From NCBI GenBank assembly GCA_965221165.1, contig CBDCRP010000002.1, positions 1,056,001 through 1,120,000 on the forward strand: 64,000 nucleotides of DNA, given 5' to 3'. Shown one piece after another: positions 9,776 through 61,112 of this stretch. How positions within the stretch are numbered: position 1 is the first letter of the stretch; each line of letters opens with the position of its first letter. The position numbers and the translations under genes are program-made. The notes below the pieces were generated by a model. The model was not told the DNA's origin and searched no databases. It saw only the letters and a program-made list of their open reading frames with translations. The stretch comes from a bacterium. Its GTDB lineage: Bacteria > UBA8248.

Positions 9776-9904
9776 GGGGATTTCCATATCAGCGATGACA
9801 GGGCGATTCCGATGTGTGAAACGAAACCCGGGAGAATTATATGCCCGGACACACGCGCGGGACGACGCTCATCAAGCGCGCCCTCGCCGAACCCGAACCG
9901 GCGA

Positions 9905-10870
9905 TTATGTGTCCAGCACGCTCTCGCCGAATAAATCCTCCAAGCCGAGCAGCATCGGCGTAAGGCCCTGGCCGTGGGCGTAGGAGAGGAGTTTTTCGAG
10001 CGACGTACGGTTCGCCTCCACGCCGTAGGGCCAGAAATCATCCCCGAAAATCTCCCGCGTCTCATCCATGACCGCCGGCAGAAACGGAATCATGGCGGAG
10101 AGCGCGCCGTTGTCGTTCAGCGATTCGAGCGTATTCTCCCGCGCCTCGCACATGGCCTGGTAAATGGACCCGAGCGCCCAGGGGGTTCGATCGTGAACGT
10201 CCTTTCGCAGCACGACGCAGTGCATCATGGGGTGAACCCCCGTTCTTTGGTAATACTCCGTCTCGGCGGCCTTGTAGTCCGGGAACAGGCGCTTGACGCG
10301 CGGCGAGCCGTTTGCGAAACACGCGGGAACCTGATGGATAAGCGCGCCGTCCACCTCACCGGATTCGAGCATGTTCGATATCGTCTGGCCGGGCTTCATG
10401 TAGCGGATGCGCGCGCCGGGGGGCATGGGTATCGGCACGCGCGGCTCGAGCGCGGCGACCCAATCCACCGAACCCACGTCGAGACCGTATTCTTCGGCGA
10501 GAATGCCCACGATCCATATGACCGCCGTCATCCCCCATTCGCGAATCGCGATCCGCTTGCCGTTCAGATCCGCCACCTTATCGACGCCCGAATCCACGTT
10601 GGCGTAGACCATCGAATGCCGGAAAACCCGACTCGGAAAGGCGGGCATCCCCACGAAGGGGCTCTCTCCTCCCCCGAGCAGGAACATGTGCGCGCCCATC
10701 GACATTTCGGACAGGTCGAACTCCTGGTATCTGCACATGCGTAAAAATATCTCGGTGGGCGGCAGGGAGAGCACACGCAGATTCACCCCCTGCGGGCGAA
10801 CGGAGCCCATTTTGAGAATGTTGGTCCTGTCATAATCGCCAAACGCCGCCGTAAGCTCCAAATCCGGCAT
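9905..10870 (-). CDS. 4,5-dihydroxyphthalate decarboxylase-like / periplasmic-binding-fold protein
   Basis: YDRT, FDLSEMS, FPSRVFRHS, HPMMH and WPYGVEAN family motifs. Confidence 0.75.
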   Translation of the reverse strand: MPDLELTAAFGDYDRTNILKMGSVRPQGVNLRVLSLPPTEIFLRMCRYQEFDLSEMSMGAHMFLLGGGESPFVGMPAFPSRVFRHSMVYANVDSGVDKVADLNGKRIAIREWGMTAVIWIVGILAEEYGLDVGSVDWVAALEPRVPIPMPPGARIRYMKPGQTISNMLESGEVDGALIHQVPACFANGSPRVKRLFPDYKAAETEYYQRTGVHPMMHCVVLRKDVHDRTPWALGSIYQAMCEARENTLESLNDNGALSAMIPFLPAVMDETREIFGDDFWPYGVEANRTSLEKLLSYAHGQGLTPMLLGLEDLFGESVLDT

Positions 10871-11068
10871 ACTCCCTCCCCCTGCGCATCATCCTGAAAG
10901 CGCCTATGATAGTTGAAAGGCCAACAGATTTCTCATAGTTTTCTCCGTGAGGCAACGAGACGAGCCCTCAGGCGCGTAAAAGCCCCGAGTTGACCACCCG
11001 CCGTTCGCCGTGGCATGAAGAGGCGTCGGATTCTCAAGGTCCCTGATTATAACCAAAAAGGATGACGC

Positions 11069-23555: not shown

Positions 23556-24458
23556 CTACGGATTGGGCTCTATTCTCGAGGGCAGGCCCCCCATCTCGCG
23601 CAGCACCTCGTAGAAGGCGACGGTGTCTTCTTCCGCATAACCCCGCTCATAGGCCATCTGCACCACCTGGGACCAGAGGTTCGTCATCAGCATGGGCGAG
23701 CCGTGGAGCCGGCCTTGCTCGAGCATGAGGCGAGAATCCTTGAGGGATGTCTTCACCTGACCCTGTTTCGAGTAATCCGCGTGAATCATCTTGGGGCCTT
23801 TGTCTATCATCGTCTTGGAGGAGCAAGCCCCGTCCTGGAGCACCTCCAGGAGGGTGTCCATCTCGAGACCGACCTTCGATCCGAGCAGCAGCCCCTCGGC
23901 CAGGGCGAGCCGGTTGCCCGCCAGGATCATGTTGATGACCAGCTTCGTCCGCGCGCCCGAGCCCACCGGCCCCATATAGTAGGCCGCCCGGCTGAAACCG
24001 GCGAAAACAGTGCGGCAGGCGTCGAAATCCTCCGCCTCACCGCCTGCGATGACCACCAGATCCTTCACGACCGCCATCGTGCTCGTCCCGCTCACGGCGG
24101 AATCGAGAAAACGGATTCCCCGCTCATTCAAATCCCCGGCGAGACGAACCGAATCCTCAGGACGCGAGGTCGTCGTATCGAGATGGTAGAGGCCCTCTTT
24201 CGCGCCCTCGGCGACCCCGCCGGGGCCTAAAGTCGCCTCGCGCGCGACGTCGCTGGTGGGCAAAGAGGTGATGACGAAGTTCACGCCTCTGGCGGCGGCG
24301 GCGGGCGTTTCGGCGGGATGGCCGCCTTTTTCGCGCAGATCGTCCATGCGCGCGGGGTCCACGTCGAAGCCCTGCACCTCGAAGCCCGTCTCGCGCATGT
24401 TCTTGATGAACGCCTGGCCCATCAGCCCCATGCCCACGATACCCACACGTTGCGACAT
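23556..24458 (-). CDS. NAD(P)-dependent beta-hydroxyacid dehydrogenase (3-hydroxyisobutyrate/6PGD family)
   Basis: GMGLMG, DTTT, FLDSAVSG, GSGARTKLVIN. Confidence 0.9.
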   Translation of the reverse strand: MSQRVGIVGMGLMGQAFIKNMRETGFEVQGFDVDPARMDDLREKGGHPAETPAAAARGVNFVITSLPTSDVAREATLGPGGVAEGAKEGLYHLDTTTSRPEDSVRLAGDLNERGIRFLDSAVSGTSTMAVVKDLVVIAGGEAEDFDACRTVFAGFSRAAYYMGPVGSGARTKLVINMILAGNRLALAEGLLLGSKVGLEMDTLLEVLQDGACSSKTMIDKGPKMIHADYSKQGQVKTSLKDSRLMLEQGRLHGSPMLMTNLWSQVVQMAYERGYAEEDTVAFYEVLREMGGLPSRIEPNP

Positions 24459-24613
24459 ACCCTTTTCTCCTTTCACGGCGATGAATTTCGTTTGGTTTTA
24501 AGACGTTCCCGCCCCGAGAACAAGCAGCACAGGCCTCGCCGAGCGTTCTCGCGCCGCACAAAACCCCCGGACCACGCTTTCAGAACCATCCCAAGCCGTT
24601 GTATCCTTCTCCC

Positions 24614-24710
24614 GGGAGCGCATCGGTGCTGGTGTGCCGCCTGGACTTCAAATCCAGTGGACGGGGCTAATCACTTCGTCGGTGGGTTCGACTCCCACGC
24701 GTTCCCGCCA
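24614..24710 (+). tRNA. selC: tRNA-Sec (anticodon UCA)
   Basis: 8-bp acceptor stem GGGAGCGC/GCGTTCCC, anticodon arm CTGGA-CTTCAAA-TCCAG, long variable arm, GGTTCGACTCC T-arm, G discriminator, encoded CCA, 97 nt. Confidence 0.95.
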
Positions 24711-24729
24711 GTTTTTGGCCTCAAAAACA

Positions 24730-25473
24730 TCACACAATCGTCAAACCACCGTCGAGCACCAGAACCTGGCCCGTCATGTAGGATGAGCGGGGCGTCACCA
24801 GATACTCCATCGCGTCCAGCACTTCATCGACCCGCCCGAACCTGCCCATGGGGGATTTGCGGTAGCGCTCCGCCATGTTGTCGGGGTCGCCGTCTCCCTG
24901 CCCTTCTCTGAGCTTCGTCAGCACGGGACCCGCCGCTATGGCGTTCACGCGGATATTCGAATCCGCCAGTTCGACGGCCAGCGCGCGCGTGAGGCCCTCC
25001 ACTCCGCCCTTCACTCCGACGTACACCACACGCTCCTTGGCCGGCGTGTGCGCGTAGAAACTCGACATGTTGACAATGGCACCGCCGCCCCGTTTTTTCA
25101 TCTCAACGGCCGCACGCTTCGCGCACAGGATGTTGCCCTTGAGCCCCACGGCCAGCGCCAGGTCAATCGTGGCCTCCTCGACTTCCTCCAGAGGGCCGTT
25201 CCCCCGAATCACGGCGCAATTGATCAGAATATCCACGCCGCCGAATTTCCCTACCGCCGCGTCGAAAGCGCTTTCAACACCCTGCGCATTGGAGATATCC
25301 GCCTGCACGCCGAGAATGGAACCGGCTGCTTCCTCCTCGAGTCGCCGTAGTCCATCTTCTTGCATGTCCACGGCCGCCACATGCGCGCCTAGACTCAAGA
25401 ACCGGCGCGCGGCTTCCGCACCGATTCCCCGGGCAGCACCCGTGATGACGAAAATTTTCCCGTTCAGTTCCAT
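24730..25473 (-). CDS. SDR family oxidoreductase
   Basis: TGAARGIG, NMSS, YVGVK. Confidence 0.9.
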   Translation of the reverse strand: MELNGKIFVITGAARGIGAEAARRFLSLGAHVAAVDMQEDGLRRLEEEAAGSILGVQADISNAQGVESAFDAAVGKFGGVDILINCAVIRGNGPLEEVEEATIDLALAVGLKGNILCAKRAAVEMKKRGGGAIVNMSSFYAHTPAKERVVYVGVKGGVEGLTRALAVELADSNIRVNAIAAGPVLTKLREGQGDGDPDNMAERYRKSPMGRFGRVDEVLDAMEYLVTPRSSYMTGQVLVLDGGLTIV

Positions 25474-25519
25474 AGTGGTCTTTCCACTCACCGGCCAACG
25501 AGAGGCGCAAGGTTCCCGC

Positions 25520-26566
25520 TCACAACGAGAGCACCCCCTCGCCTCGTGCAATTTCCAGCCGTGTTCCCAGCTTCGCAGAGAGCGATTCGAGGTTGGTGAG
25601 GATTTCCGCCGATTTGGGCTCCTCCTCGGCGAGAATACGCGGGCTGCCGTCCTCTTCGATCAAAACGGGCGCAAAAGCCACCCGGCTGAGCGCTCCTCCC
25701 CTAAGGGTTATTTTCAGGCAAATCGACTCGCGCGCGGTGGGCATGAACATCGGGTGGTCATGATCGAGAACGAAATTGCCCAAAGCATAAAAAACAGGCC
25801 GGCCGCGATAGACCTCGATTCCTTGCAGAATGTGGGGATGATGACCGACGACGACGTCCACCCCCGATTCGACGGCCGCATGCGCAGCGGCTTGCTGGGA
25901 AAGCGTGAGCGTACGGCTCTGGCTCGCGCCCCAGTGGAACGAGGCTAAAAGAAAATCGACTCTCGGACGCGCACGTTCGATATCGGCGGCCATCGCCTCC
26001 ATGTCCTCTTCATTCACGTAAGGGGGGCCATAGAGCGCATCCTGCCGGATGGGCGCGACGCCCGGCTTCGTGGGGCCTGCCCCCCAGCCCAACGGCAGTT
26101 CGAGAACGTAGGATAAAAACCCGTATCGTACGCCTTTTCGCTCCATAACGGCGGGCGTTCGCGCTTCCTGGATATTTCGGCCCGCTCCCGAATATGCGAT
26201 TCCGTTTCGCTCGAGCAATTCCATCGTCTCGACGAACGGTTCGACCCCGTAGTCCATGCAGTGGTTGCTGGCGAACGCCAATACGTCGAAGCCTCCTTCG
26301 AGATATCCCCGAATCATGTCCGGGCTGTGGCGCATCACGATTTTCCTGCTCGCGGGTTCCCCCAGATGAGACATCGACGCCTCGAGTCCACCGAAGCGCA
26401 GATCGGCCGCATCCAGAAAAGAGGCGACCTTCGAGAAAGTATTTTTCGGCTCGGAGCGATCGATTTCCATGTCGCCCACTACGATGAGCGTAGATTCGCC
26501 ATCCGCTAAATCTTGTGCTTCACCCGGCAACGGCCACCCCCATTCTTGATGTATCGCGCATTCCAC
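25520..26566 (-). CDS. CapA family metallophosphatase
   Basis: VGD, ASNHCMDYG, HWG, GHHPH, YALGNF. Confidence 0.88.
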   Translation of the reverse strand: MECAIHQEWGWPLPGEAQDLADGESTLIVVGDMEIDRSEPKNTFSKVASFLDAADLRFGGLEASMSHLGEPASRKIVMRHSPDMIRGYLEGGFDVLAFASNHCMDYGVEPFVETMELLERNGIAYSGAGRNIQEARTPAVMERKGVRYGFLSYVLELPLGWGAGPTKPGVAPIRQDALYGPPYVNEEDMEAMAADIERARPRVDFLLASFHWGASQSRTLTLSQQAAAHAAVESGVDVVVGHHPHILQGIEVYRGRPVFYALGNFVLDHDHPMFMPTARESICLKITLRGGALSRVAFAPVLIEEDGSPRILAEEEPKSAEILTNLESLSAKLGTRLEIARGEGVLSL

Positions 26567-49885: not shown

Positions 49886-50224
49886 ATGGAAATCAAGACT
49901 GAGCAGGAAAATGGAATCTTGGTTGTGCAGGTTGATGGCCGTATTGACGGCGCTACCGCCCCTGAATTCGAGGATACGATAAAGAACGTGATCACGGACG
50001 ATGAGCGCGCCGTGATCGTAAATTTCGAGGGCGTATCCTATATCAGCAGCGCCGGCCTACGCGCCGTCCTGCTGGTCGCCAAGCAGCTTAGTCAAAGCAA
50101 TACGAAGTTCGCGCTGTACTCGCTCGGGGATTTGACCCGCGAAGTTTTCGAGATATCCGGATTCGACCGCATCATCCAAATCCATGGCTCGAAGGACGAA
50201 GCGCTCACCGCGACAGGAAGCTGA
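49886..50224 (+). CDS. STAS anti-sigma factor antagonist (RsbV/SpoIIAA-like)
   Basis: GRID, YISSAGLR, VFEISGF; AGGAGG RBS. Confidence 0.92.
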   Translation: MEIKTEQENGILVVQVDGRIDGATAPEFEDTIKNVITDDERAVIVNFEGVSYISSAGLRAVLLVAKQLSQSNTKFALYSLGDLTREVFEISGFDRIIQIHGSKDEALTATGS

Positions 50225-50365: not shown

Positions 50366-52552
50366 TTACCGGGGCAACTCGATGATCATTTCCGTAAATT
50401 CATCGGGCTCGGTTTCGACTCGTATGTTTCCCCCGTGCTGACGAATGATGTCGCTGGAAAGTGAAAGGCCGAGGCCCGTGCCCCTGTCCGTCGGCTTGGT
50501 CGTGAAGAAGGGGTTGAATATCTTCTCGGCGACCTCGGGCGGCATTCCGCTTCCGTTGTCGCGAATGCGGATTTCGATGCGATCCGGCATGCACCGGGTA
50601 ACGAGGCGCAGGGTGGGATCGTAGCGCGGCGCATCTTCGCCGGCGGAAGCGGCGACCGTTTGTCGTTTCTGGTCGGTGGCGTAGCAGGCGTTGCTCACCA
50701 TGTTCAGGAAGACACGTCCCAAATCCTGGGAAACCGCTTCGTACTCCACCATATTCTCGTCAAAATCCTCCTCCAGCGTGAGGTTGAAATTCGGGTCGAC
50801 GGCACGGGCGCTGTGGTAGGCAAGCCGCGCGTGCTCGTTCAGCAGGTTGTTTATATTGGTCGGCTGGGCCTCGCCCGAGCCCCTGCCCATCTGGAGCATG
50901 CTCTGCACGATACTGTTCGCCCGCTCTCCATGTTCGCGGATGCGCTTGAGGTTGCCGGTGAGGTCTTCCCCGATTTCGTTGATGAGCTCGACCGGATCCT
51001 CCTCGCCCTGCTTTTTCTCCTCCTCCGCTTCCTGTCCATTTTTCTGCCCGTTACCGCCCGACGCCAATACTTTCTCCAACTCTTCGAGCAACTCTTCCAT
51101 CAGTTCTTCGGAAACTTCCGAGAAATTCTTGATGAAGTTCAACGGATTTCTGATCTCGTGGGCGACGCCCGCCGTCAGTTCGCCGAGCGCCGCCAGTTTT
51201 TCGCGCATGACGATCTGATCCTGCGCTTTCTCCAGATCGCCCAGCGCGCTTTCGAGCTCTTCGTTCTTGCCCTTGATCTCCTCGGCCAGCTTCTCCACCA
51301 GGTTCAGGCGCTGCACCTCCAAAGCGTGGCGGCGGAAGATTTCGAGCGCCGCTGCCATTTCCGCCACTTCGTCCTGCCCGCCGATATCGACTTTCTCCTC
51401 CAGGTCGCCGTCGGCCATGCGGCGCATGCGGTCCGAGAGCCGTCCGATCCGGCGCGACAGCACGCGGCCGATGAACAGCCAGCCGATCAGCACGGCGCCG
51501 ATAAAGCTGATGGCGCTCAGCGCGAGCAGGATGTTGCTGCCGGTGCTGACGGCCTGGGCGGAGTCCCGGGTGGCCTGCCGCGCGCTCTTGCGGGCCGTGC
51601 TCACCAGCGTTTCGGCGGCGGCCAGGATTTTCGCCTCCAAAGATTCGTGAAACGCGAGAAGCTCTCCCTGTTTCCTCTCGAGCGCCAGTTCACGCGCGCG
51701 CAGGTTGAAGCCCCCCTCCTCCCCGATGCTCAACTCGACCATCTGCTCGAAGAGCGGCTTGAGAGCGGCGCGCACCGGAACCTTTCCGAGCGCGTCCAGA
51801 CGCCGCCTGACGCCGCGCGCCGTGGCCTCGAACCGCTCGCTCAGCGGCTCGAGCAGGGCGGCGTCCGACACGCTGAAGGCGGTGGCGAGAAGCTGCGTGG
51901 CGATGGTGGCGTCCGACCTCAAACCGGCGATGTAGCGGTAGAGGTTGATTCCCTCTTCCGAGAAATGCCCGGCGCGGGGGACGGGCGCCTCCCCGATTTT
52001 GCTGTAGCCCGTCATCGCGTAGAACAACTGATCGTCAATGGCGGGAACCATGACGTTGTTCAGCTCCTTGCGCACCCATGTGAGTTGCAATTGCAGCGTA
52101 TCGCGCAGATCGGTGAGGTCGAAGCGCTGCAACACCAATTGTTTGATGGCTGCAAGGTTCTCGATCAGCACGTCGCCGAGCTTCTTGATGCGCAGGGAGA
52201 TTTCCTCGTTCCCTCCCTGGCGTATCAGCGCCGCCAGAGCGGTCTCGAACGCCTCCTGGTCCTTGGCGACCTCGGTGGCTATCTGGTCCAGATTGTCGGG
52301 ATTCACGATAGCGGCCAGGCGCGGCGCGGCGGCCACCAGGCCGCTGCTTTTCTGGGCGGTTTCGAAGGCGCTCGCCAGGAATGGAACGGTGCCCTCGTTC
52401 ACGCGGTTCTGCACCTGCGCCACGAAACCGAACGAGACCCATGCGACCACGCTCGCGATGACGGTGAGAGAAGCGGCGGTGCCGATGCTGAGGTAGAGTT
52501 GCGTCGATATCTTATAACGCTTGTCCAGGAGGTTTTTCAGCGCGCCTTTCAT
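50366..52552 (-). CDS. Membrane sensor histidine kinase with large helical (TorS-like) periplasmic domain and HAMP
   Basis: Two TMs, HAMP ([11 protein letters not shown]), [25 protein letters not shown]. Confidence 0.92.
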
Positions 52553-53736
52553 CACTTTTCCGGCCGCCGGATATTTTTGGTCGGAATGTAGCGGCCGCCC
52601 TTTCCGATGACGGTGAGGAAAACGGCGTCCGAACCCTGGTTGTCGCCTTTGCCGTAGCGGAGCCTGAATCCGCCGAGGTCGATGTTGGCCGCGCGGCGCA
52701 GACCCTGGAGAAGACAGGCTCGGTCGGGCTTACGCCCGCACAGCTCGAGGGCGCGGATGGTCAGCCTGCCGGCCATGTAGCCCTCGAAGGAGACGAAGCT
52801 GGGAACCGCGCCGGGCTTGTGGGCTTCCAGATCCCGCCGGTAGTCCGACGCGATCTTGAGGTTCTCCGTCGTCGGGAACGGAACCACCTGGGTGACGTAT
52901 ATACCGATGCCGGCGGGACCGAGTTCATGCACGAGCGCATTGCTGCCCACGAAGGAGATCGTCACGAAAATCGGCTCGAAACCCGTATGGCGCGCCCAGG
53001 CGATGAAGGCGGCGACCGGCTTGTAGGCTCCCACGAGGACCACCGCTCCGGGGTTCGCGCGCCTGATGTCGAGCAGGGCCGTTTTTACAGCCGTCGTATT
53101 TCGTGTATAGACTCCGGTGACCGCCGGTTTGAGCTTGCGCCGCTCGAGGGCGCGGCGAACGCCCCGGTAGCCCGCCAAACCGAAAGAATCGTCCTGATAG
53201 AGCACGGCGATCTTCTTGATCCCTAAGTCCTTGATCAGCCGGTTCACCATCTCCTCGGTCTCCTGGAAGTAGGAGGCGCGCAGGTTGATCACGTTCTTCC
53301 ATTTGGGATCGCGCAGGAAGGCGGCACCGGTGAAGGGCGCGATATAAGGGACGTTCGCTTTTGCGGCGACCGGAGTGGCGGAACGCGAAGTGGGCGTGCC
53401 GACGGCCCCGATGAGCGCGAAGACCTTGCTCTGCTCTATCAATCGGCGGGTGTTCAGGATGGCGGCTTCGGGTTCATACGCATCGTCGAGGGAGGTGAGT
53501 TCGAGCCGGCGCCCGTGAACGCCGCCGCGCACGTTCGCCGCGCGAAAGGCGGCTTCGATGCCGAGGCGCATCTCCTCGCCCAGAGCCCTCGCGGGGCCGG
53601 TGAAGGCGGCGGACTGGCCGAAAAGAATCCGCTGGGGGGAAATCCCGGGCACGGCTGCCTGTGCTCCCACCGCCGAGCAGAGGAGCGCTCCGGCGAGGAG
53701 CGAAAACACCCGGCGGATTCGGAACCAGAGCCTCAT
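52552..53736 (-). CDS. Periplasmic binding protein type 1 (branched-chain amino acid SBP family)
   Basis: Signal peptide, GQSAAFTG, DDAYEP, VGTPT, RASY. Confidence 0.9.
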   Translation of the reverse strand: MRLWFRIRRVFSLLAGALLCSAVGAQAAVPGISPQRILFGQSAAFTGPARALGEEMRLGIEAAFRAANVRGGVHGRRLELTSLDDAYEPEAAILNTRRLIEQSKVFALIGAVGTPTSRSATPVAAKANVPYIAPFTGAAFLRDPKWKNVINLRASYFQETEEMVNRLIKDLGIKKIAVLYQDDSFGLAGYRGVRRALERRKLKPAVTGVYTRNTTAVKTALLDIRRANPGAVVLVGAYKPVAAFIAWARHTGFEPIFVTISFVGSNALVHELGPAGIGIYVTQVVPFPTTENLKIASDYRRDLEAHKPGAVPSFVSFEGYMAGRLTIRALELCGRKPDRACLLQGLRRAANIDLGGFRLRYGKGDNQGSDAVFLTVIGKGGRYIPTKNIRRPEK

Positions 53737-54152
53737 TCACTCCTCCGCTTGACAAGGATCATATGGTTCCTGTTCTCCTCCCGTCGATAGGACACCTCGT
53801 CCATCATCGTCCGCACCAGATGGATGCCGAGTCCGCCCACGGCGCGATCTTCGATGCCCGATTCGGTGTCCGGAACGGGTGCATCGGTCAGCGGGTCGAA
53901 CGGCTTGCCGTCGTCTATGATCTCGATGGTCACCGCCTCCGCGTCCGAGACGAGTTCGATTTCGATTTCACCTGCGCCGCCGCCGCTCCCGTGGTTCACG
54001 ACGTTGAGCACCAACTCTTCGAGCACGAGGTCGACCTGGAATTCGACGTCGGGCGGCCACTCCTGCTCCCGCCCGAATTCCCCGATAGCGGCCTGGACGC
54101 GCGGGAGGTCGTCGGCTTCAAACCCCATGCGCAAGGAGAGTTTCGCGCTCAT
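53733..54152 (-). CDS. Anti-sigma factor Ser kinase (RsbW/SpoIIAB-like)
   Basis: EELVLNVVNHG, DDGKPFDP, GGLGIHLV; ATGA overlap at 54149-54152. Confidence 0.9.
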   Translation of the reverse strand: MSAKLSLRMGFEADDLPRVQAAIGEFGREQEWPPDVEFQVDLVLEELVLNVVNHGSGGGAGEIEIELVSDAEAVTIEIIDDGKPFDPLTDAPVPDTESGIEDRAVGGLGIHLVRTMMDEVSYRREENRNHMILVKRRSE

Positions 54153-55360
54153 CCGCTCGCTCCGATTCGATAAAGCGTCAGGCAGGTGATGTCGTCGAAC
54201 TGGGGCGCTCTGCCCGCGAAATCCTTCACCGCCTGAAAGATCGCATCGTTGATCTCCTTCGCGTTCTTCGGCGGCGAATTCGTGCAAATCTCGCGCAGCC
54301 GTTCGAGTCCGAACTGCTCTTGCCGGTTGTTCTCCGCCTCCGTCACGCCGTCGGTGTAGAGGATGATCGCATCGCCGGGCGAGAGGGTCGTGGTGTATCT
54401 TTTGTACTCGAACTCGGGCGCCACCCCGAGGGCGACCCCCGGATCCTGGGTGAGCAGGCTCGAGGAGCCGTCGGCGTGGACGATGAGCGGAGGATTGTGC
54501 CCGCCGTTGGCGTAAACGAACTCCCCGGTCGCCGAGTCGAAAACCGCGAAAAAGACGGTGACGAACATCGCGGCGTCGTTGTTCTCCTGGAGCATGCGAT
54601 TGACCTCGCTCAGCACGTCGCCGGGCTGGAGCAGACGGTTGACCTCGCCGAGCACGTCGCCGGGATTGGCGCGGGCGACGGCGACGCTGTTGAGCAGCGT
54701 GCGGCTCGACATCATGAAAAGGGCGGCGGGCACGCCCTTGCCCGAGACGTCGGCGACCGTGATGCCGACGCGGCCTTCGGGCAAGTCTATCACGTCGAAG
54801 AAATCACCCCCCACGTCACGGGCCGGCTCCATGTTCGCAAACACCTCGAAATCGGGAGATTCGGGAAATTGGGTCGGCAGGATCGACTGCTGCATCTTGC
54901 TGGCCAGGGCGAGATCGCTTCTCAGCGCGACCAGCTTGTCGCGCGCCTCGAGGGCCTCGCGCAGCATGGCCAGGTGCTCCAGCGTCCGTTCTATGGTGAT
55001 CCGCAAATCCTCGAAGTCGATCGGCTTGGTGACGAAGTCGAAGGCGCCCCTGTTCATCGCCGTGCGGATGTTCTTCATGTCGCCATACGCCGAGACGACC
55101 ACGGAGCGGACGTTGGGGTCGACCGAGGGGATTTGCTTGAGCAGCGTGAGGCCGTCCATCTCCGGCATGTTGATGTCCGTGAGCACCATGTCGATCTGCT
55201 CGCCATCGTCATTGAGGCGCTCGAGCGCCTCGACCCCGTTGCGGGCGAAGACGAACGTATAACGGCCTCTCCGAATCTCGCGCCGCATGCGCTGCAGCAC
55301 GAGTTGCTCGAGGTCGGGCTCATCGTCGACCACGAGAATCTTGTGCGGTTCTTCCATCAT
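54149..55360 (-). CDS. REC + PP2C/SpoIIE phosphatase (RsbU/RsbP-like)
   Basis: REC DD/D/K; VGGDFFD, ADVSGKG, MFVT, YTDGVTE, DDIT. Confidence 0.93.
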   Translation of the reverse strand: MMEEPHKILVVDDEPDLEQLVLQRMRREIRRGRYTFVFARNGVEALERLNDDGEQIDMVLTDINMPEMDGLTLLKQIPSVDPNVRSVVVSAYGDMKNIRTAMNRGAFDFVTKPIDFEDLRITIERTLEHLAMLREALEARDKLVALRSDLALASKMQQSILPTQFPESPDFEVFANMEPARDVGGDFFDVIDLPEGRVGITVADVSGKGVPAALFMMSSRTLLNSVAVARANPGDVLGEVNRLLQPGDVLSEVNRMLQENNDAAMFVTVFFAVFDSATGEFVYANGGHNPPLIVHADGSSSLLTQDPGVALGVAPEFEYKRYTTTLSPGDAIILYTDGVTEAENNRQEQFGLERLREICTNSPPKNAKEINDAIFQAVKDFAGRAPQFDDITCLTLYRIGASG

Positions 55361-55797
55361 GGCCCCCCTTCCGCCAACATCTTGTCGCGCGCCTCGAAGG
55401 CCTCCCGCATCGACTTGAGATGCTCCAAAGACCTCTCGATGGTAAGCCGCAGGTCCTCGAAATCGATCGGCTTGTTGAGGAAATCGAATGCGCCCCTGTT
55501 CATCGCCGTGCGGATGTTCTTCATGTCCCCATAGGCAGAGACGATCACGCAGCGGAGCTTGGGGTCGAAAGCCGGGATTTGCTCGAGCAGCGTGAGGCCG
55601 TCCATCTCCGGCATGTTGATGTCCGTGATGACGATGTCGATTCCATCGTCCCCGTTCAAGCGCTCGAGCGCTTCGACCCCGTTGCGGGCGAAGACGAACG
55701 AATAGCGGCCGCTGCGAATCTCGCGCCGCATGCGCTGCTTCACGAGGTCTTCAAGGTCGGGTTCGTCGTCGACCACGAGTATCCTGTGCGAATCCAT
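55357..55797 (-). CDS. Stand-alone response regulator, close paralog of the adjacent phosphatase REC domain
   Basis: VVDDE, TDINMP, KP; shares SAYGDMKNIRTAMNRGAFDF with 54149..55360. Confidence 0.9.
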   Translation of the reverse strand: MDSHRILVVDDEPDLEDLVKQRMRREIRSGRYSFVFARNGVEALERLNGDDGIDIVITDINMPEMDGLTLLEQIPAFDPKLRCVIVSAYGDMKNIRTAMNRGAFDFLNKPIDFEDLRLTIERSLEHLKSMREAFEARDKMLAEGGP

Positions 55798-56181
55798 CGT
55801 CCCGGTCCCCCTATTGCCAGACTCCGCCCGACCAACGCTCAAGCATTTTCGAATTCCAGCTAAATGTATATAAGACTCACGCGGCGCGCAACTCATTTCG
55901 CAAGCCCGCCTCGTGATCCGGGCAAGGCGGCGCGGCGCCTCCTATCCCCTGAAACCCGGGCTTCACCGGCGCGCGCTCCCGGCTCGATACCGCCCCGCCG
56001 CCGGATTTTGCGCCTCTCGATTTTCCGCCCGGGAGCATCTCGACCTCCCGATCCCATGAGTCGATTCTGCGCCGAATGGGGTAAAACCTCGAAAATTTCA
56101 TCCGCCGCCCGGTTGTCCCCGCCCTTGCGTTTGCGTATTTTAGGGTGACGCCCGCCAGGGCGCCTACCCGCCAGGGTGGTC

Positions 56182-56808
56182 ATGCGCCGCCGATTGCCGA
56201 TTTCAAGAGGAAGACCCCCCTTGTCCCGCAAATCCAAAAGAAAAAACAAAGGCTCAGGCGCCGCAGGGCGCAACTCCTCGCGTCCGGCGAGAGCCGGAGG
56301 TTCCAAGAACAACGGCACGGCCTTGCTCGTCTGGGTGAGCGCCATCGTCGCGGTCGTCTTCGGCATCTATTACTTATCGGGCGCATCCGCGAACAAGGCG
56401 CGCGACGCGCCCTCCCTCGGCAACCGCCACATCCGCGTCGGGGCGAGCCACACCATCACCTACAACACGGACCCCCCCACTTCGGGGCCGCATTATCCGA
56501 CCATCGTCCGCTGGGGCGTGCACCAAAGACCCATCGACAAGGGCTTCCAGGTGCACAACCTGGAGGACGGCGGCGTGCTCGTGCAGTATAACTGCAGCGA
56601 TTGCCCCGAACTCGTGAAAAAACTAAAGTCCATCGTGCGCGGCTACCCCAAGTTCGTCATCCTCGCCCCCTACCCGGCCATGAAGCACAGGATCGCGCTC
56701 ACCGCATGGGGCAAGATCGACACGTTCGAGACGTTCGACGAAAAGCGCATCACGGGCTTCATCAAGGCCTTTCGCGGCATCGACCACCACCCGCGGGGGA
56801 GAAGATAG
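56182..56808 (+). CDS. DUF3105 domain membrane-anchored protein
   Basis: One TM, YNTDPPTSGPH, VHNLEDGGV.VQYNC, ALTAW. Confidence 0.85.
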   Translation: MRRRLPISRGRPPLSRKSKRKNKGSGAAGRNSSRPARAGGSKNNGTALLVWVSAIVAVVFGIYYLSGASANKARDAPSLGNRHIRVGASHTITYNTDPPTSGPHYPTIVRWGVHQRPIDKGFQVHNLEDGGVLVQYNCSDCPELVKKLKSIVRGYPKFVILAPYPAMKHRIALTAWGKIDTFETFDEKRITGFIKAFRGIDHHPRGRR

Positions 56809-56890: not shown

Positions 56891-58663
56891 TTAATTCCCG
56901 CCGCCGCTCGCCGCCGCCGGGGTTTCCACGCGGAGGGTCACGATATCCGTGTCATGGTATTGCTGGTGGCGAACCGAGGACGCGAGGTGGCGCAGAAGCC
57001 GGAGCGACACTTCCCGCTCGATGGGCGCGCCGACGGTATGCTCGCCGAGCAGAGCGATTCTGTCCTGGAGGTTCTCCTCGCCGCTTGCGGCGATGAACTC
57101 GATCACCGCCCCGCCGTCTTCCTTGTGCGCGACCAGGAGCAGGCGCCGCCGCTCGCGGCCCTCGCCTGCTTCATCCTGGCGGAGGAGCGTCAGCAGAGTC
57201 TCCTCGCCCGCGGCGTCGATGCGGTTCGCCATCGCCGCATCCCAGCCGCTCGCCGAGGCGAACGCGCCGAGAAACTCCCTGATCTTCGGCAGGGCCGAGA
57301 CGTCGAAGGCCACCTCGACCCGGCTGCGGCGGGGTTCGGTGAGTTCCACGAACAGGGTCATGAGAATGGCCACGAGGCCGCCGGCCGTCATCCCGTTGTT
57401 CAGAAGGCCGCCCGCGAACGTGGAGAAATACTCAGGAAATATCACGCCGTTTTGGAAGCCGACGCCGGCCCAGAACGCGACCCCCGCGACCAGGCCCTTG
57501 CGGTAGTCGATTCCGTCCTGAACGATCATCTTCATGCCGCTCACGAAGAGCATCGCCATCAAGACGGTGAGATAGGCCGCGGCGACCGGACCCGGTATCG
57601 CCAGCACCACGGTGATCGCCTTGGGAAGAAACGTCAGCGCGATGAACACCACGCCTGCGGCGATTCCCACGTTGCGGGCCGCGACCCCGGTGAGTTCGGT
57701 CACGGCTACGCTCGTCGAAGCGGCCGTGTTCGGCACCGTTCCCGCGAAGCCGCATAGCAGGTTGCCGATTCCGGTTGCGGCCACCGCGCCCTGCACCGCC
57801 CGGAAATCCACCGCCCGGGGCCGACGCCAGGATACGCGCTGAATGGCGACGGAATTGCTGAGCACCTGGATGGTGTCGATCAGGGTCACGAACACGAACC
57901 CGGGAAGCAGCGTCCAGAAAACCGGCCCGAAGCTAAGGTCCAGGCCCGGCCATTCGCCTTCGGGAAGACCGATCCACAAAGCCCCCGCGACGCGGCCCGT
58001 GTCGTAGAGACCGAAAAAACCGGCGACGAGCGAGCCTGCGACCACGCCGACCACGGGCGCCCACAGGCGAAGCGCGCCCGTCGCCTTGAGCGCGATTCCG
58101 ACGATGACGGCCATGGTCGCCAAGGCGCTCAGCGGCGCGGCGAGCGCAGGAGCGCCCTTCGGCGCGTCTTTCAGCATGTCGAAGACGATGGGCATCACCG
58201 TCACCGCTATCAGCATGACTACGGTTCCCGTGACGGTCGGCGTCAGTACCCGTCTGAACAGCGAGAGCCGCGCCGAAAGCGCGAACCGGAAGAGCGATGA
58301 GATGAGAACCAGGGTGGCGAGCATCGCCGGGCCGCCCTCGGTGAGCGCCGTGATGCAGACCGCGATGAAGGCCGGGGAAGAGCCCATGAGGAGCACGTAG
58401 CCCGCGCCGATCCGGCCGACCCGGACCGCCTGTAACACCGTGGTCACGCCGCTGATCGCGACCGCGGCGAACACGGCCCACGACAGGTAGGCTTCGGTTC
58501 CGCCGCCGGCCCGGACCACGGTCGTTGGGATAAATATCGAGAAGGCTATAATCACAACAACGAGCTGTAAGCCGAGCCCGAAGGCGAGCGCGGGAGGGGG
58601 CTTTTCGTCGGCCTCGTAGCGAACGTCCGTATTCGCGGGCTGGTCGGGATTTCGGGTGCTCAT
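56891..58663 (-). CDS. NCS2 (xanthine/uracil) permease fused to a C-terminal degenerate RsbW-like domain
   Basis: TP.VTG.V, ELTGVAAR and IPGPV permease motifs; last ~140 aa align with the neighbouring RsbW; AGGAAGG before ATG 58663. Confidence 0.85.
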   Translation of the reverse strand: MSTRNPDQPANTDVRYEADEKPPPALAFGLGLQLVVVIIAFSIFIPTTVVRAGGGTEAYLSWAVFAAVAISGVTTVLQAVRVGRIGAGYVLLMGSSPAFIAVCITALTEGGPAMLATLVLISSLFRFALSARLSLFRRVLTPTVTGTVVMLIAVTVMPIVFDMLKDAPKGAPALAAPLSALATMAVIVGIALKATGALRLWAPVVGVVAGSLVAGFFGLYDTGRVAGALWIGLPEGEWPGLDLSFGPVFWTLLPGFVFVTLIDTIQVLSNSVAIQRVSWRRPRAVDFRAVQGAVAATGIGNLLCGFAGTVPNTAASTSVAVTELTGVAARNVGIAAGVVFIALTFLPKAITVVLAIPGPVAAAYLTVLMAMLFVSGMKMIVQDGIDYRKGLVAGVAFWAGVGFQNGVIFPEYFSTFAGGLLNNGMTAGGLVAILMTLFVELTEPRRSRVEVAFDVSALPKIREFLGAFASASGWDAAMANRIDAAGEETLLTLLRQDEAGEGRERRRLLLVAHKEDGGAVIEFIAASGEENLQDRIALLGEHTVGAPIEREVSLRLLRHLASSVRHQQYHDTDIVTLRVETPAAASGGGN

Positions 58664-58812: not shown

Positions 58813-59184
58813 GTGTATAAAAAGCGAAAATCAACATACTCAAGCCTAGCGTGGTGGAATCAACCGACAAGGACACCTTGCTGGGGATTCATTCAAGATC
58901 ACGTGAAAGATGGGGGGACGGTGTACATGGATGAGCATCCTTCTTGCCAAGGCATTCAGGGATTCGGCCATGAATCCGTGAAACACAGCGTTGGTGAGTA
59001 AATGAAGGATCAAGCTCATATGAACGACGCATACTACAGTAAGGGCATAAAACATTTTTGGGGAAATGTGGTAGAATTTGTTGGATTCCACAATCCCCGC
59101 CCGTTGGACACTCAAAATCTAATGCGTCAGATTGCGAATGACCTATCCGGTCAAAGGCTACGCTACAAGGATTTGGTGGCGTAG
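58813..59184 (+). pseudogene. IS1595 (ISXO2-like) transposase remnant
   Basis: TVYMDE, HESVKHSVGE*, AHMN, FW, RLRYKDLVA; internal stop at 58999 and apparent deletions. Confidence 0.8.
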
Positions 59185-60143
59185 TGCGAGAACAAATGGC
59201 TCTAGACATCCATTTGCCGGAAGAATCCTCGCTGACCGGAAAGAAAGCTACTTTCCTTGAATTGTTACGTAGTTCAGGCAAGATGAAGTACCGTCGCTAC
59301 CTTGCATCGCCCTTGCGCTATGCAGGGGGGAAGAGTCTGGCCGTCGGCATGGTTGTTGAGCTTTTACCGGACGATATTGACCATATCGTATCGCCGTTTA
59401 TGGGTGGTGGCTCTATTGAAATTGCCTGCGCCAATGAACTTGGTCTCAATGTCGTGGCCTACGATATCTTCGATATACTTTGTACATATTGGCAAGTTCA
59501 AATATCGGTGCCGGATGAATTGGCGAATCGAATGCGAGCATTTACCCCGAACCGCAAAACCTTTGCCACTGTAAAGCGACGCTTGGAGCAACATTGGAAG
59601 GCTGGAAAATCTTTAGATGCTTACGATCTGGCCGCACACTATTATTTCAACTCAAACACATCATACGGGCCGCACTTTCTAGGCTGGCCATCGGACATTT
59701 ACCTCAACAAAACCCGCTACGAAAAGATGGTAGAGAAATCAGCAGCGTTTCGTGCGCCAACATTGATGGTTGAATGTGGTTCGTTCGAGGAAACTATTCC
59801 ACGGCATACTAAGGATTTCCTTTATTGCGACCCTCCCTATTATCTCGAAGAAGGAAAAACTTTTGTTGGCATGTATCCGCACCGAAATTTCCCGATCCAC
59901 CACAATGGGTTTCGTCATGACATATTGCGTGATCTCCTCTTGAAACATAAAGGCGGATTTATTCTTTCCTACAATAATTGCGAGACTATTCGAGACTGGT
60001 ATTCCGACTGCGAGATGATTGAACCTGAATGGCAGTATACCTTCGGGCAAGGTGATACACGAATCGGAAAGAATCGACTCGAATTAAATGGTGGTTCGTA
60101 TATTAAAAAGTCACACGAACTTCTAATCTGGCGGCATTCATGA
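59184..60143 (+). CDS. N6-adenine DNA methyltransferase (Dam/D12 class)
   Basis: SPLRYAGGKS, SPFMGGGS, DPPY, ILSYN. Confidence 0.92.
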   Translation: MREQMALDIHLPEESSLTGKKATFLELLRSSGKMKYRRYLASPLRYAGGKSLAVGMVVELLPDDIDHIVSPFMGGGSIEIACANELGLNVVAYDIFDILCTYWQVQISVPDELANRMRAFTPNRKTFATVKRRLEQHWKAGKSLDAYDLAAHYYFNSNTSYGPHFLGWPSDIYLNKTRYEKMVEKSAAFRAPTLMVECGSFEETIPRHTKDFLYCDPPYYLEEGKTFVGMYPHRNFPIHHNGFRHDILRDLLLKHKGGFILSYNNCETIRDWYSDCEMIEPEWQYTFGQGDTRIGKNRLELNGGSYIKKSHELLIWRHS

Positions 60144-60925
60144 TTTCCCCTGGAAGGCGTGGAGGTTCATCGGAACAGGCTCGCGCCTATCGACAAGCAG
60201 GGCACGACGACGCGACAATTTTTGCTCTACTTCTTGGCCTTGCTGATGGATACCGCCGTGATCCTAAAGCCAAAAAAGATGTTATTGACCCAGCTGGTGA
60301 TGCTCACTCACTTAAATCAGGAAAAAAGAAGTGGCAAGTGTTCCTGTATAGACGAAGCCGATTTCTGGAAGACGACGGATTTCAGGCGTTGAATGGCATC
60401 GGAACATTACTTGCTCACTGTATTGATGCTTTCCCGCCGCGCTATGAGGATTATCGGGGCAATGAAGCTGCGGCTAAAATCCGTTTACAGGCACCGATGC
60501 GAGAACTAAAAGACAGGTTTCAGCGCAAGGCTCTACTCCGTGCTTTTCTCAAGAAAGCAATATTCAACGGCGGTGAAGTGAACTACCTGACAATCTGCCA
60601 CGAAGATCGCTATCATGTGTATTGGAATGATGATGTCGTAAAAATAATGGCGAATGGGTTTAGTGTTGAAAATTCAAAGGCGCGTCCAGGAAGAAGGAAT
60701 GAATTTGACGATCAAAAGGTGCTATTCAAATATAAAGGGCTGAATGTTGGTGAACTAGAGATGCGTAACGATAGCGCAAAGCATTACGGCCAAGTTCGGT
60801 TCAATATGATAAAGGATAGGTGCTTCGAGCTATTGCAAGACGCGATGCTTGAATCATCGGAATGGTCTCCCGAAATCATCGTTTATGGTTATGCAGTGCG
60901 AACATTTGGAAAATGGAATTCATAA
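60140..60925 (+). CDS. Putative type II restriction endonuclease
   Basis: ATGA-coupled to the MTase; KKDV...SLKS PD-(D/E)XK-like core. Confidence 0.65.
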   Translation: MISPGRRGGSSEQARAYRQAGHDDATIFALLLGLADGYRRDPKAKKDVIDPAGDAHSLKSGKKKWQVFLYRRSRFLEDDGFQALNGIGTLLAHCIDAFPPRYEDYRGNEAAAKIRLQAPMRELKDRFQRKALLRAFLKKAIFNGGEVNYLTICHEDRYHVYWNDDVVKIMANGFSVENSKARPGRRNEFDDQKVLFKYKGLNVGELEMRNDSAKHYGQVRFNMIKDRCFELLQDAMLESSEWSPEIIVYGYAVRTFGKWNS

Positions 60926-60935
60926 AGACATTCTC

Positions 60936-61112
60936 ATGAAAAATCGAACCCTCACGCTCAAGTCCACAGACTACCAGCCGAGCAAGGCTGAACTGGAGAA
61001 AAAGGTGCGCATAAAAACCACACCAGAGAACCTTGCCAAAGCGATGGTTCAGGACGTGAAAATCAAGCACTCACCCGACGCCAAGCAGGCTGAATGCTAC
61101 GCTGGCAAATAA
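60936..61112 (+). CDS. Small hypothetical protein at the element end
   Basis: 58 aa, YQPSKAELE...TPENLAKA; stop lies within the candidate terminal repeat. Confidence 0.5.
   Translation: MKNRTLTLKSTDYQPSKAELEKKVRIKTTPENLAKAMVQDVKIKHSPDAKQAECYAGK

Follow-up and report, generated by a model that had tools for sequence, protein, structure and literature searches.

The permease described here is encoded on the minus strand of a 64,000-nucleotide stretch of bacterial DNA (GTDB lineage Bacteria; UBA8248; contig CBDCRP010000002.1 of assembly GCA_965221165.1, positions 1,056,001 to 1,120,000 of the forward strand), which in its full length we call the window. The protein couples an NCS2-type permease body to a C-terminal, catalytically dead homologue of the anti-sigma serine kinases RsbW, SpoIIAB and UsfX, an anatomy in which we have high confidence. 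A complete partner-switching module, with an intact RsbW kinase of its own, adjoins the gene. Our leading reading, put forward tentatively, is that the dead domain is a protein-docking module where this neighbouring switch controls the permease by way of its unphosphorylated STAS protein.

A permease that ends in a dead RsbW-type domain

The open reading frame (ORF) runs from an ATG at 58663 to a stop at 56891 and encodes 590 amino acids; a longer frame, reaching to a GTG at 58876, was rejected as the permease start because close relatives are 581-590 amino acids long. Residues 30-402 match Pfam Xan_ur_permease (PF00860; E 4.4e-35, 121.6 bits against a cut-off of 27), and positions 1-405 of the 407 in the NCBIfam pbuX model align, under that model's cut-off, to residues 30-438. 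The protein has in common with the NAT/NCS2 transporters UraA, XanQ and UapA both the Pfam family and an alignment over most of the membrane body. No Pfam model extends into the last ~150 residues. The permease, which belongs to a large and tightly conserved branch of NCS2/NAT, is a 14-helix body followed after a linker of ~4 residues by a cytoplasmic domain: in the full-length AlphaFold2 (AF2) model (pLDDT 80.6, pTM 0.73) the last membrane helix spans residues 424-442 and the first strand of the tail begins at residue 447.

An earlier note on this DNA had paired three segments of the tail by eye with those of an RsbW encoded nearby, and hhalign returned the same pairings when 45 tail domains (alignment A1, from which L056, L076 and L027 were left out) were set against nine genuine RsbWs (Prob 92.6%, E 4.6e-7, 129 columns, 16% identity in aligned columns). 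Between the tail and the local RsbW itself, 2.7 kb away, BLASTP gave 24% identity over 119 amino acids with a pairwise E of 3e-4, and round 0 of an hmmsearch with the profile of the nine RsbWs returned 20 ORFs, namely 13 RsbWs and seven permease tails. As for library models, Pfam HATPase_c_2 (PF13581) is matched at E<=1 by 14 of the 45 family tails, at best with 3e-4, and has no match in the window permease's own tail; NCBIfam RsbA_anti_sig matches the tail weakly (0.031), over the same profile region as for genuine RsbW; and a search of the PDB with the tail sequence profile found no chain (best E 0.58).

Structure comparison points the same way. When the tail was modelled by AF2 (pLDDT 75.5, with values below 50 at tail residues 100-111, the ATP-lid region; pTM 0.71), the top Foldseek matches of the model in the PDB were UsfX, RsbW and SpoIIAB (E 4e-7 to 7e-4, TM 0.52-0.77). 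The best of them is 8ih8_C, UsfX with the STAS protein RsfB (E 4.2e-7, TM 0.64/0.73); the next, 8jzt, 6m37, 1th8 and 1l0o, include RsbW-RsbV and SpoIIAB-SpoIIAA complexes, and histidine-kinase CA domains appear in the same search just at E>5e-3 and TM ~0.4. Look-alikes of the tail in the ESM Atlas gave weak leads, with HATPase_c_2 on 15% of one cluster.

The tail has kept the fold of the RsbW/SpoIIAB/UsfX kinases (PF13581) and a detectable homology to them, including the helix-1 region and the LEE(L/T) of the N-box helix, but it has lost their ATP-binding residues. Where the N-box Asn would align, the tail has Thr, and the G1 (DxGxG) and G2 (GxxGxG; GGLG) boxes are missing too, whereas the neighbouring RsbW keeps N-box, G1 and G2 in these columns; ATP binding by the tail is therefore not expected. 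It differs from these kinases also in being fused to a permease, not free-standing, and in having no sigma factor found nearby. Foldseek, hhalign and the aligned columns all uphold the proposal of a GHKL fold of RsbW type that has lost its ATP motifs.

Related loci were taken to be the best 80 of 277 stretches that encode a relative, in species-representative genomes; across them the tail is 62-87% identical over more than 10 phyla. Among the 45 tails of A1 identity goes down to 38%, yet there is one fully invariant column, along with 22 that are nearly so. Nearly invariant residues of the tail, in P0002 domain numbering, are E46, E47, N90, E110, S112, R114, H125, Y128 and D132. To judge from this cross-phylum conservation, the tail domain is under purifying selection.

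The adjoining partner switch and its linkage to the permease

The genes beside the permease (Table 1) bear out the claim of the earlier note that Rsb partner-switching genes lie near it. The set is complete, with a STAS protein carrying the conserved phosphorylatable serine, an RsbW whose ATP motifs are intact and a PP2C phosphatase joined to a response-regulator domain (RR-PP2C), and it further includes a periplasmic binding protein (PBP) and a histidine kinase (HK). From the single-domain response regulator to the HK, the genes lie downstream of the permease on the same strand, the RsbW start overlapping the PP2C stop by 4 nt. The STAS gene, whose PF01740 match (G000:C2:1105892-1106203) corresponds to window positions 49892-50203, diverges from these switch genes, and the DUF3105 gene, on the opposite strand, has the permease on one side and the response regulator on the other.

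Table 1. Coordinates, in window positions, of the permease, its two parts and the genes of the adjoining switch
Feature	Position	Strand	Evidence
SupE-type NCS2-superfamily permease, 590 aa	56891..58663	-	ORF and translation; Pfam; full-length AF2 model
Permease membrane body, residues 1-~441	57341..58663	-	Pfam residues 30-402; pbuX match; secondary structure
Cytoplasmic dead RsbW/SpoIIAB-like domain, residues ~442-590 (stop included)	56891..57340	-	BLASTP, hhalign, AF2/Foldseek
DUF3105 protein, between permease and switch genes	56176..56808	+	Pfam 2.2e-27
Single-domain response regulator	55357..55896	-	Pfam Response_reg 3.8e-26; likely start MDSHR, ~55797
RR-PP2C (SpoIIE-type) phosphatase	54149..55360	-	Pfam SpoIIE 4.8e-56, Response_reg 2.9e-24
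RsbW-type serine kinase, N/G1/G2 intact	53733..54152	-	HATPase_c_2 5.5e-27; N50, D80, G82 and GGLG invariant (A2)
Periplasmic binding protein (Peripla_BP_6)	52552..53736	-	Pfam 8.2e-58
Sensor histidine kinase (HAMP-HisKA-HATPase_c)	50366..52555	-	Pfam
STAS-only protein, anti-sigma antagonist type	49886..50224	+	PF01740 4.3e-20; SYISSAGLR serine motif (A3)

The whole genome (3.69 Mb) holds one SpoIIE, which is that of the window, one permease of the family, three STAS and three HATPase_c_2 matches over cut-off; with so few of these genes, adjacency by chance can be put, as a rough estimate, at ~1% or less per lineage. No sigma-factor Pfam family was found among the scanned neighbours at 43.3-64 kb (three scanned ORFs had no Pfam match and smaller ORFs were left unscanned), so the switch is without an obvious classical target here. 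A promoter and terminator scan around the permease gene gave counts no higher than in shuffled sequence.

Counted within 10 kb flanks and with queries derived from the window, switch genes accompany the permease at 12 of the 80 related loci, in two lineages and three gene orders (STAS at 11, RsbW at 12, PP2C at 11, PBP at 12 and HK at 12), and a relaxed STAS profile (E<=50) added no STAS loci among the 80. The 12 loci comprise three from the window's genus (L004, L005, L007) and nine from sponge Nitrospirales. The full set of STAS, RsbW, PP2C, PBP and HK lies within 10 kb in the window, at L004, L005 and L007, and at 11 of 11 orthologue loci (L123-L133, of which L130 is the same contig as L007). 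Two gene orders occur in the genus, G034 and G023 differing from the window; in G034 (L123) the RR-PP2C gene shares the strand of the permease and starts 1 nt from its stop.

The linkage recurs, with another gene order, in the Nitrospirales as a second phylum-level lineage. There RsbW lies ~0-150 nt downstream of the permease, in convergent orientation, and is followed by STAS, RR-PP2C, PBP and HK at eight of the nine loci, the exception (L062) having RsbW alone. Since the Nitrospirales RsbW and STAS are just ~30-35% identical to those of the window, we rejected the idea that the block had recently passed entire from one lineage to the other. The switch-linked rows of the permease tree fall into two clades, within an unresolved region. 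A third setting of the adjacency is the Plakortis fosmid, in which, according to PMC3908369, a SupE-like permease (ORF17, 23842-25515) is followed after 82 nt by a STAS gene (ORF18, 25597-25944), with another STAS-containing ORF two genes upstream. The linkage of permease and switch is real but partial.

Some further features of these neighbourhoods may be recorded. The DUF3105 gene accompanies the switch through the genus (L123-L133, L136, L137), even where there is no permease, and it swaps side relative to the permease between arrangements; at L136 (G025), positions 10555-10638 may hold a 28-residue permease relic (E 5e-4). Outside the window, at G000:C3:1591835-1593359, a weak HATPase_c_2 match in a 356-aa frame lies ~1 kb from a STAS match in a 551-aa frame, possibly as a second kinase/STAS pair of the genome. 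Directly upstream of the permease, window positions 59000-61000 form a low-GC island (0.46 vs ~0.62) with two overlapping plus-strand ORFs, a D12-class N6-adenine DNA methyltransferase (59184-60143) and a protein of 261 amino acids without a Pfam match (60140-60925); the island is possibly a restriction-modification pair gained by transfer.

Substrate motifs and the SupE family

The earlier note called the protein an NCS2 nucleobase permease. Its place in the NCS2 superfamily stands, by Pfam, but the nucleobase label is doubtful because the NAT motifs of transmembrane segments (TMS) 1, 8 and 10 are absent. The permease scores under the cut-off of all NCBIfam NCS2 models (ncs2, TIGR00801, 140.4 vs 291.8; pbuX 162 vs 414.15; NCS2_1 35.1 vs 40). 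By the motif definitions in PMC5972032, with the columns placed by alignment to UraA, the Gln-His motif of TMS1 is replaced by Q33-L34, of which Q33 is nearly invariant in the family; rare Gln-hydrophobic variants of TMS1 are described in that source. E-x-x-G-D at TMS8 is replaced by Q-V-L-S-N, and [Q/E/P]-N-x-G-x4-T-[G/R/K] at TMS10 by T-S-V-A-V-T-E-L-T-G, in which the final T-G alone is kept (the aligned segment of UraA is E-N-I-G-V-M-A-I-T-R). The Q-L of TMS1, the Q-V-L-S-N of TMS8 and the T-S of TMS10, together with the sub-cut-off NCBIfam scores and the extra C-terminal domain, set the window permease apart from UraA, XanQ and UapA, and on the evidence of these motifs its substrate is probably not a canonical nucleobase.

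At TMS8, E-T-x-G-D is found in 47 of 78 relatives, including all switch-linked orthologues of the window permease in the genus, and a Q-type TMS8 in 27 further rows among the 78, conserved through whole clades. One clade of 17 rows has Q...S-G (Q...S-C in L053), with TRAP genes upstream at some of its loci; the switch-linked Nitrospirales clade has I-D-T-M-Q-T-I-S-A-S; and the copies linked to polyketide synthases (PKS) have R...S-S. In this region (window positions 57800-57900; residues ~258-275 and 308-331) the window permease is the sole Q-type copy in its orthologue group, and its TMS10 is altered too. Its I-D-T-I-Q-V-L-S-N-S differs at 8 of 10 residues from the I-G-A-I-E-T-V-G-D-G of sister genomes, the rest being ~80% identical, and resembles the motif of the switch-linked Nitrospirales clade. 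This change in TMS8 and TMS10 could be due to gene conversion, to a shift in specificity or to relaxed selection.

The tail is a common one. Of 8000 candidates that were scored, over 3001 matched it at E<=1e-3, and when representatives at 50% identity were searched exhaustively it was matched by 591 clusters at E<=1e-3, of which 339 reached E<=1e-10 and 32 reached E<=1e-30. PF00860 is present on 119 of 120 among the matches listed. The exception, P0019 (423 aa), is an integrase-permease chimera, with phage-integrase Arm-DNA-binding and central domains N-terminal and the end of the permease with its tail C-terminal, probably a permease gene cut by an integrating element. Full-length members have ~570-600 amino acids with the tail at ~436-590, and no other architecture was seen in 10 odd-length representatives (five permease fragments and five without a Pfam match).

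The best 80 loci come from Nitrospinota, Nitrospirota, Alpha- and Gammaproteobacteria, Actinomycetota and Binatota, as well as Latescibacterota, Verrucomicrobiota, Thermodesulfobacteriota and Acidobacteriota. Family members are mostly from metagenome-assembled genomes of sponge symbionts or sponge-metagenome bins; a metagenome scan with the divergent member P0255 gave one locus, L084. Within the window's own phylum the tail is present in 21 of 51 genomes (19 of the 22 others of the same genus, 1 of 2 from one other genus and none of the remaining 26), and the family is limited there to 2 of 15 genera. This patchiness within the phylum, combined with the identity across phyla, suggests that the permease family is shared by horizontal transfer bound to one habitat.

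Since 2007 this gene family has gone under the name of SupE, the permease of sup clusters in sponge symbionts; we take the name from a table in PMC3908369, and the SupE label rests on that table, not on a direct comparison with the deposited SupE sequence. In that source (2013) the best match of a 557-aa permease, at 44% identity, is the SupE from a sup clone of an Aplysina symbiont. The earlier note knew of no description of this architecture, and this holds in part: the gene family was already known as SupE, but no description of its dead-kinase domain was found in the literature covered, outside of which lay most subscription journals and supplements.

The window permease belongs to the same protein family as SupE of the sup (SupA-E) PKS cassette, and paralogues in its own genus occupy cassettes of the order PKS, acyl carrier protein (ACP), phosphopantetheinyl transferase, hydrolase, permease and ACP, the locus L084 having hydrolase, permease and PKS. 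A PKS with ketosynthase (KS) and acyltransferase domains lies beside permeases with the same tail at L028, L063, L069, L084 and L115-L118, in one tree with the window's protein, and a single Nitrospirales genome holds three paralogues, one linked to the switch, one to a PKS and one to neither. The window copy differs from SupE in lying beside a partner switch and not in a PKS cassette, and in its TMS8 and TMS10 residues; there were no KS matches in the 64-kb window, and the permease is not in a sup cassette. In other surroundings, DctP-DctQ-DctM TRAP genes lie directly upstream of the permease at ~11 loci of the Q...S-G clade (L010, L011, L015, L024, L026, L078, L081 and others), and a gene with a YCII domain lies directly downstream of it at 8 loci.

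Proposed docking of the STAS protein and the alternatives

If the switch acts on the permease, we envisage that the PBP and the HK would sense a solute and phosphorylate the RR-PP2C, which would in turn dephosphorylate the STAS protein. The unphosphorylated STAS protein would then bind the dead kinase domain, and transport would be altered. The dead domain cannot phosphorylate the STAS protein and therefore could not release it; the interaction would end when the separate, intact RsbW kinase re-phosphorylated the STAS protein. A division of roles of this kind has a precedent in the SigF switch of Mycobacterium smegmatis, where, according to PMC7693655, RsbW1 binds, RsbW2 is the kinase and RsbW3 acts by binding RsbW1. 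There, as proposed here, a kinase RsbW is distinct from non-kinase binders of the RsbW fold, but the M. smegmatis components are soluble and their output is a sigma factor, whereas the non-kinase copy of the window lies within a transporter and its binding is proposed. A prediction of the complex between the tail (A1) and the STAS protein (A3) gave a score of 0.14 and a mark of 0.32, without controls, and carries no weight either way. A wider reading, in which dead RsbW domains throughout the permease family receive the signal of STAS partner switches, seems to us possible but less likely than not.

In favour of STAS docking we count the closeness of the tail to UsfX, RsbW and SpoIIAB, which are matched in complexes with STAS proteins; the conservation of the domain; the linkage to switch genes in the window's genus, in the Nitrospirales and on the Plakortis fosmid; the low odds of adjacency by chance; the M. 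smegmatis precedent; and the lack of a sigma-factor family among the scanned neighbours. Several observations weigh against it. The earlier note had made its case depend on the fusion going together with partner-switching genes, and for most of the family the two are independent: at 68 of the 80 related loci the 10-kb flanks hold neither STAS nor RsbW nor PP2C, and other contexts are found among the 80 (TRAP at ~11, the YCII protein at 8, PKS at 3). The tail is equally conserved in non-switch contexts, and a search for switch-specific residues gave two columns (one of them in the tail) common to both linked clades, against 0-5 in controls. An approximately unbiased (AU) test did not reject a tree with all switch-linked rows as one clade (p 0.075), and the linked lineages may represent one ancient event. 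The switch, for its part, is kept where the permease is absent or broken and therefore does not need it. A STAS orthologue occurs throughout the other genomes of the window's genus (22 of 22); three of 94-99% completeness (G025, G029, G033) have no permease tail anywhere and keep the whole switch; and an intact switch stands beside a permease remnant (residues 481-587) at L126 (G031, 9801-10121) and beside a permease with an internal deletion of ~330-517 at L127 (G030, 9861-11033). Membership of one operon could also reflect a shared substrate and not physical docking.

The equal conservation of a family-wide fusion in every context, the many loci without switch genes and the persistence of the switch without the permease would all fit an autonomous built-in domain, one that serves for dimerisation under the gate domains, for stabilisation or for autoinhibition and has no switch partner, the neighbourhood then being due to a shared substrate or pathway or to inherited synteny. 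RsbW and SpoIIAB form dimers, as do NCS2 permeases, which we count in its favour. The short linker that joins the tail to the last helix speaks for it as well, as does the STAS domain of SulP, which is needed for stability and function according to PMC8256260. An autonomous domain is the main rival to STAS docking and in our view nearly as probable, but it sits less easily with a switch that lies immediately beside the permease in three separate settings, in differing gene orders, and with STAS proteins, sigma factors and other RsbWs being the sole known partners of the fold.

The remaining explanations appear improbable. A sensor of small ligands or metals, in which the remnant pocket or the invariant R-H-Q-Q-Y-H-D-T-D hairpin would bind a metabolite or cation that tunes transport, would account for nearly invariant polar residues at positions that no longer form an ATP site, and for high conservation across contexts, but the tail matched no ligand-binding family, and its ATP-lid region (tail residues 100-111, pLDDT <50) is short and poorly predicted. 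Somewhat less probable again is that the dead domain docks the genuine RsbW kinase as a pseudo-dimer partner and so ties the availability of the kinase to the permease; RsbW-type proteins dimerise, and the RsbW gene is the immediate neighbour of the permease in the Nitrospirales, but the tail and RsbW are just 16% identical over aligned columns. The action of M. smegmatis RsbW3 through binding of RsbW1, as given in PMC7693655, would also fit such a pairing. Least probable of all is a transceptor or decoy, by which the permease would report substrate occupancy to the switch by sequestering the STAS protein. The acidic residues of TMS8 are neutralised in the window (Q-V-L-S-N, as against E-T-x-G-D in the switch-linked orthologues), which could mean altered or lost transport, but the Q type is conserved in whole clades (27 further rows of 78), so that Q-type copies are probably working transporters, and the switch already has a sensor of its own in the PBP and the HK.

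NCS2 and SulP/SLC26 transporters share a related 7+7 inverted-repeat permease fold. In SulP/SLC26 proteins (PMC8256260), as in the window permease, the C-terminus carries a cytoplasmic domain of a kind used in partner switching, but the SulP domain is STAS, whereas that of the window permease is the kinase-type RsbW fold, in a mirror-image arrangement. Should the tail prove to be merely a structural appendage, the label "purine/pyrimidine permease" would still be corrected, the nucleobase-binding motifs not being present. If, on the other hand, the STAS protein does dock on the dead domain, a partner switch would control a transporter directly and post-translationally, as the mirror image of SulP/SLC26. 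STAS and a transporter-borne pseudo-kinase would then form a previously unrecognised output branch of the switch, one that could explain "orphan" switches without a sigma factor. Among partner-switching modules, which are widespread, there are many for which no output is known, and the regulation of transporters of the NCS2/SLC26 fold is poorly understood. A permease with the kinase-type half of a switch built in, sometimes in the same operon as the rest of it, is a concrete candidate for STAS control of transport. It also gives a function to seek in this permease family, which is very common in sponge symbionts, the sup PKS cassettes included, and is, it appears, passed horizontally between them.

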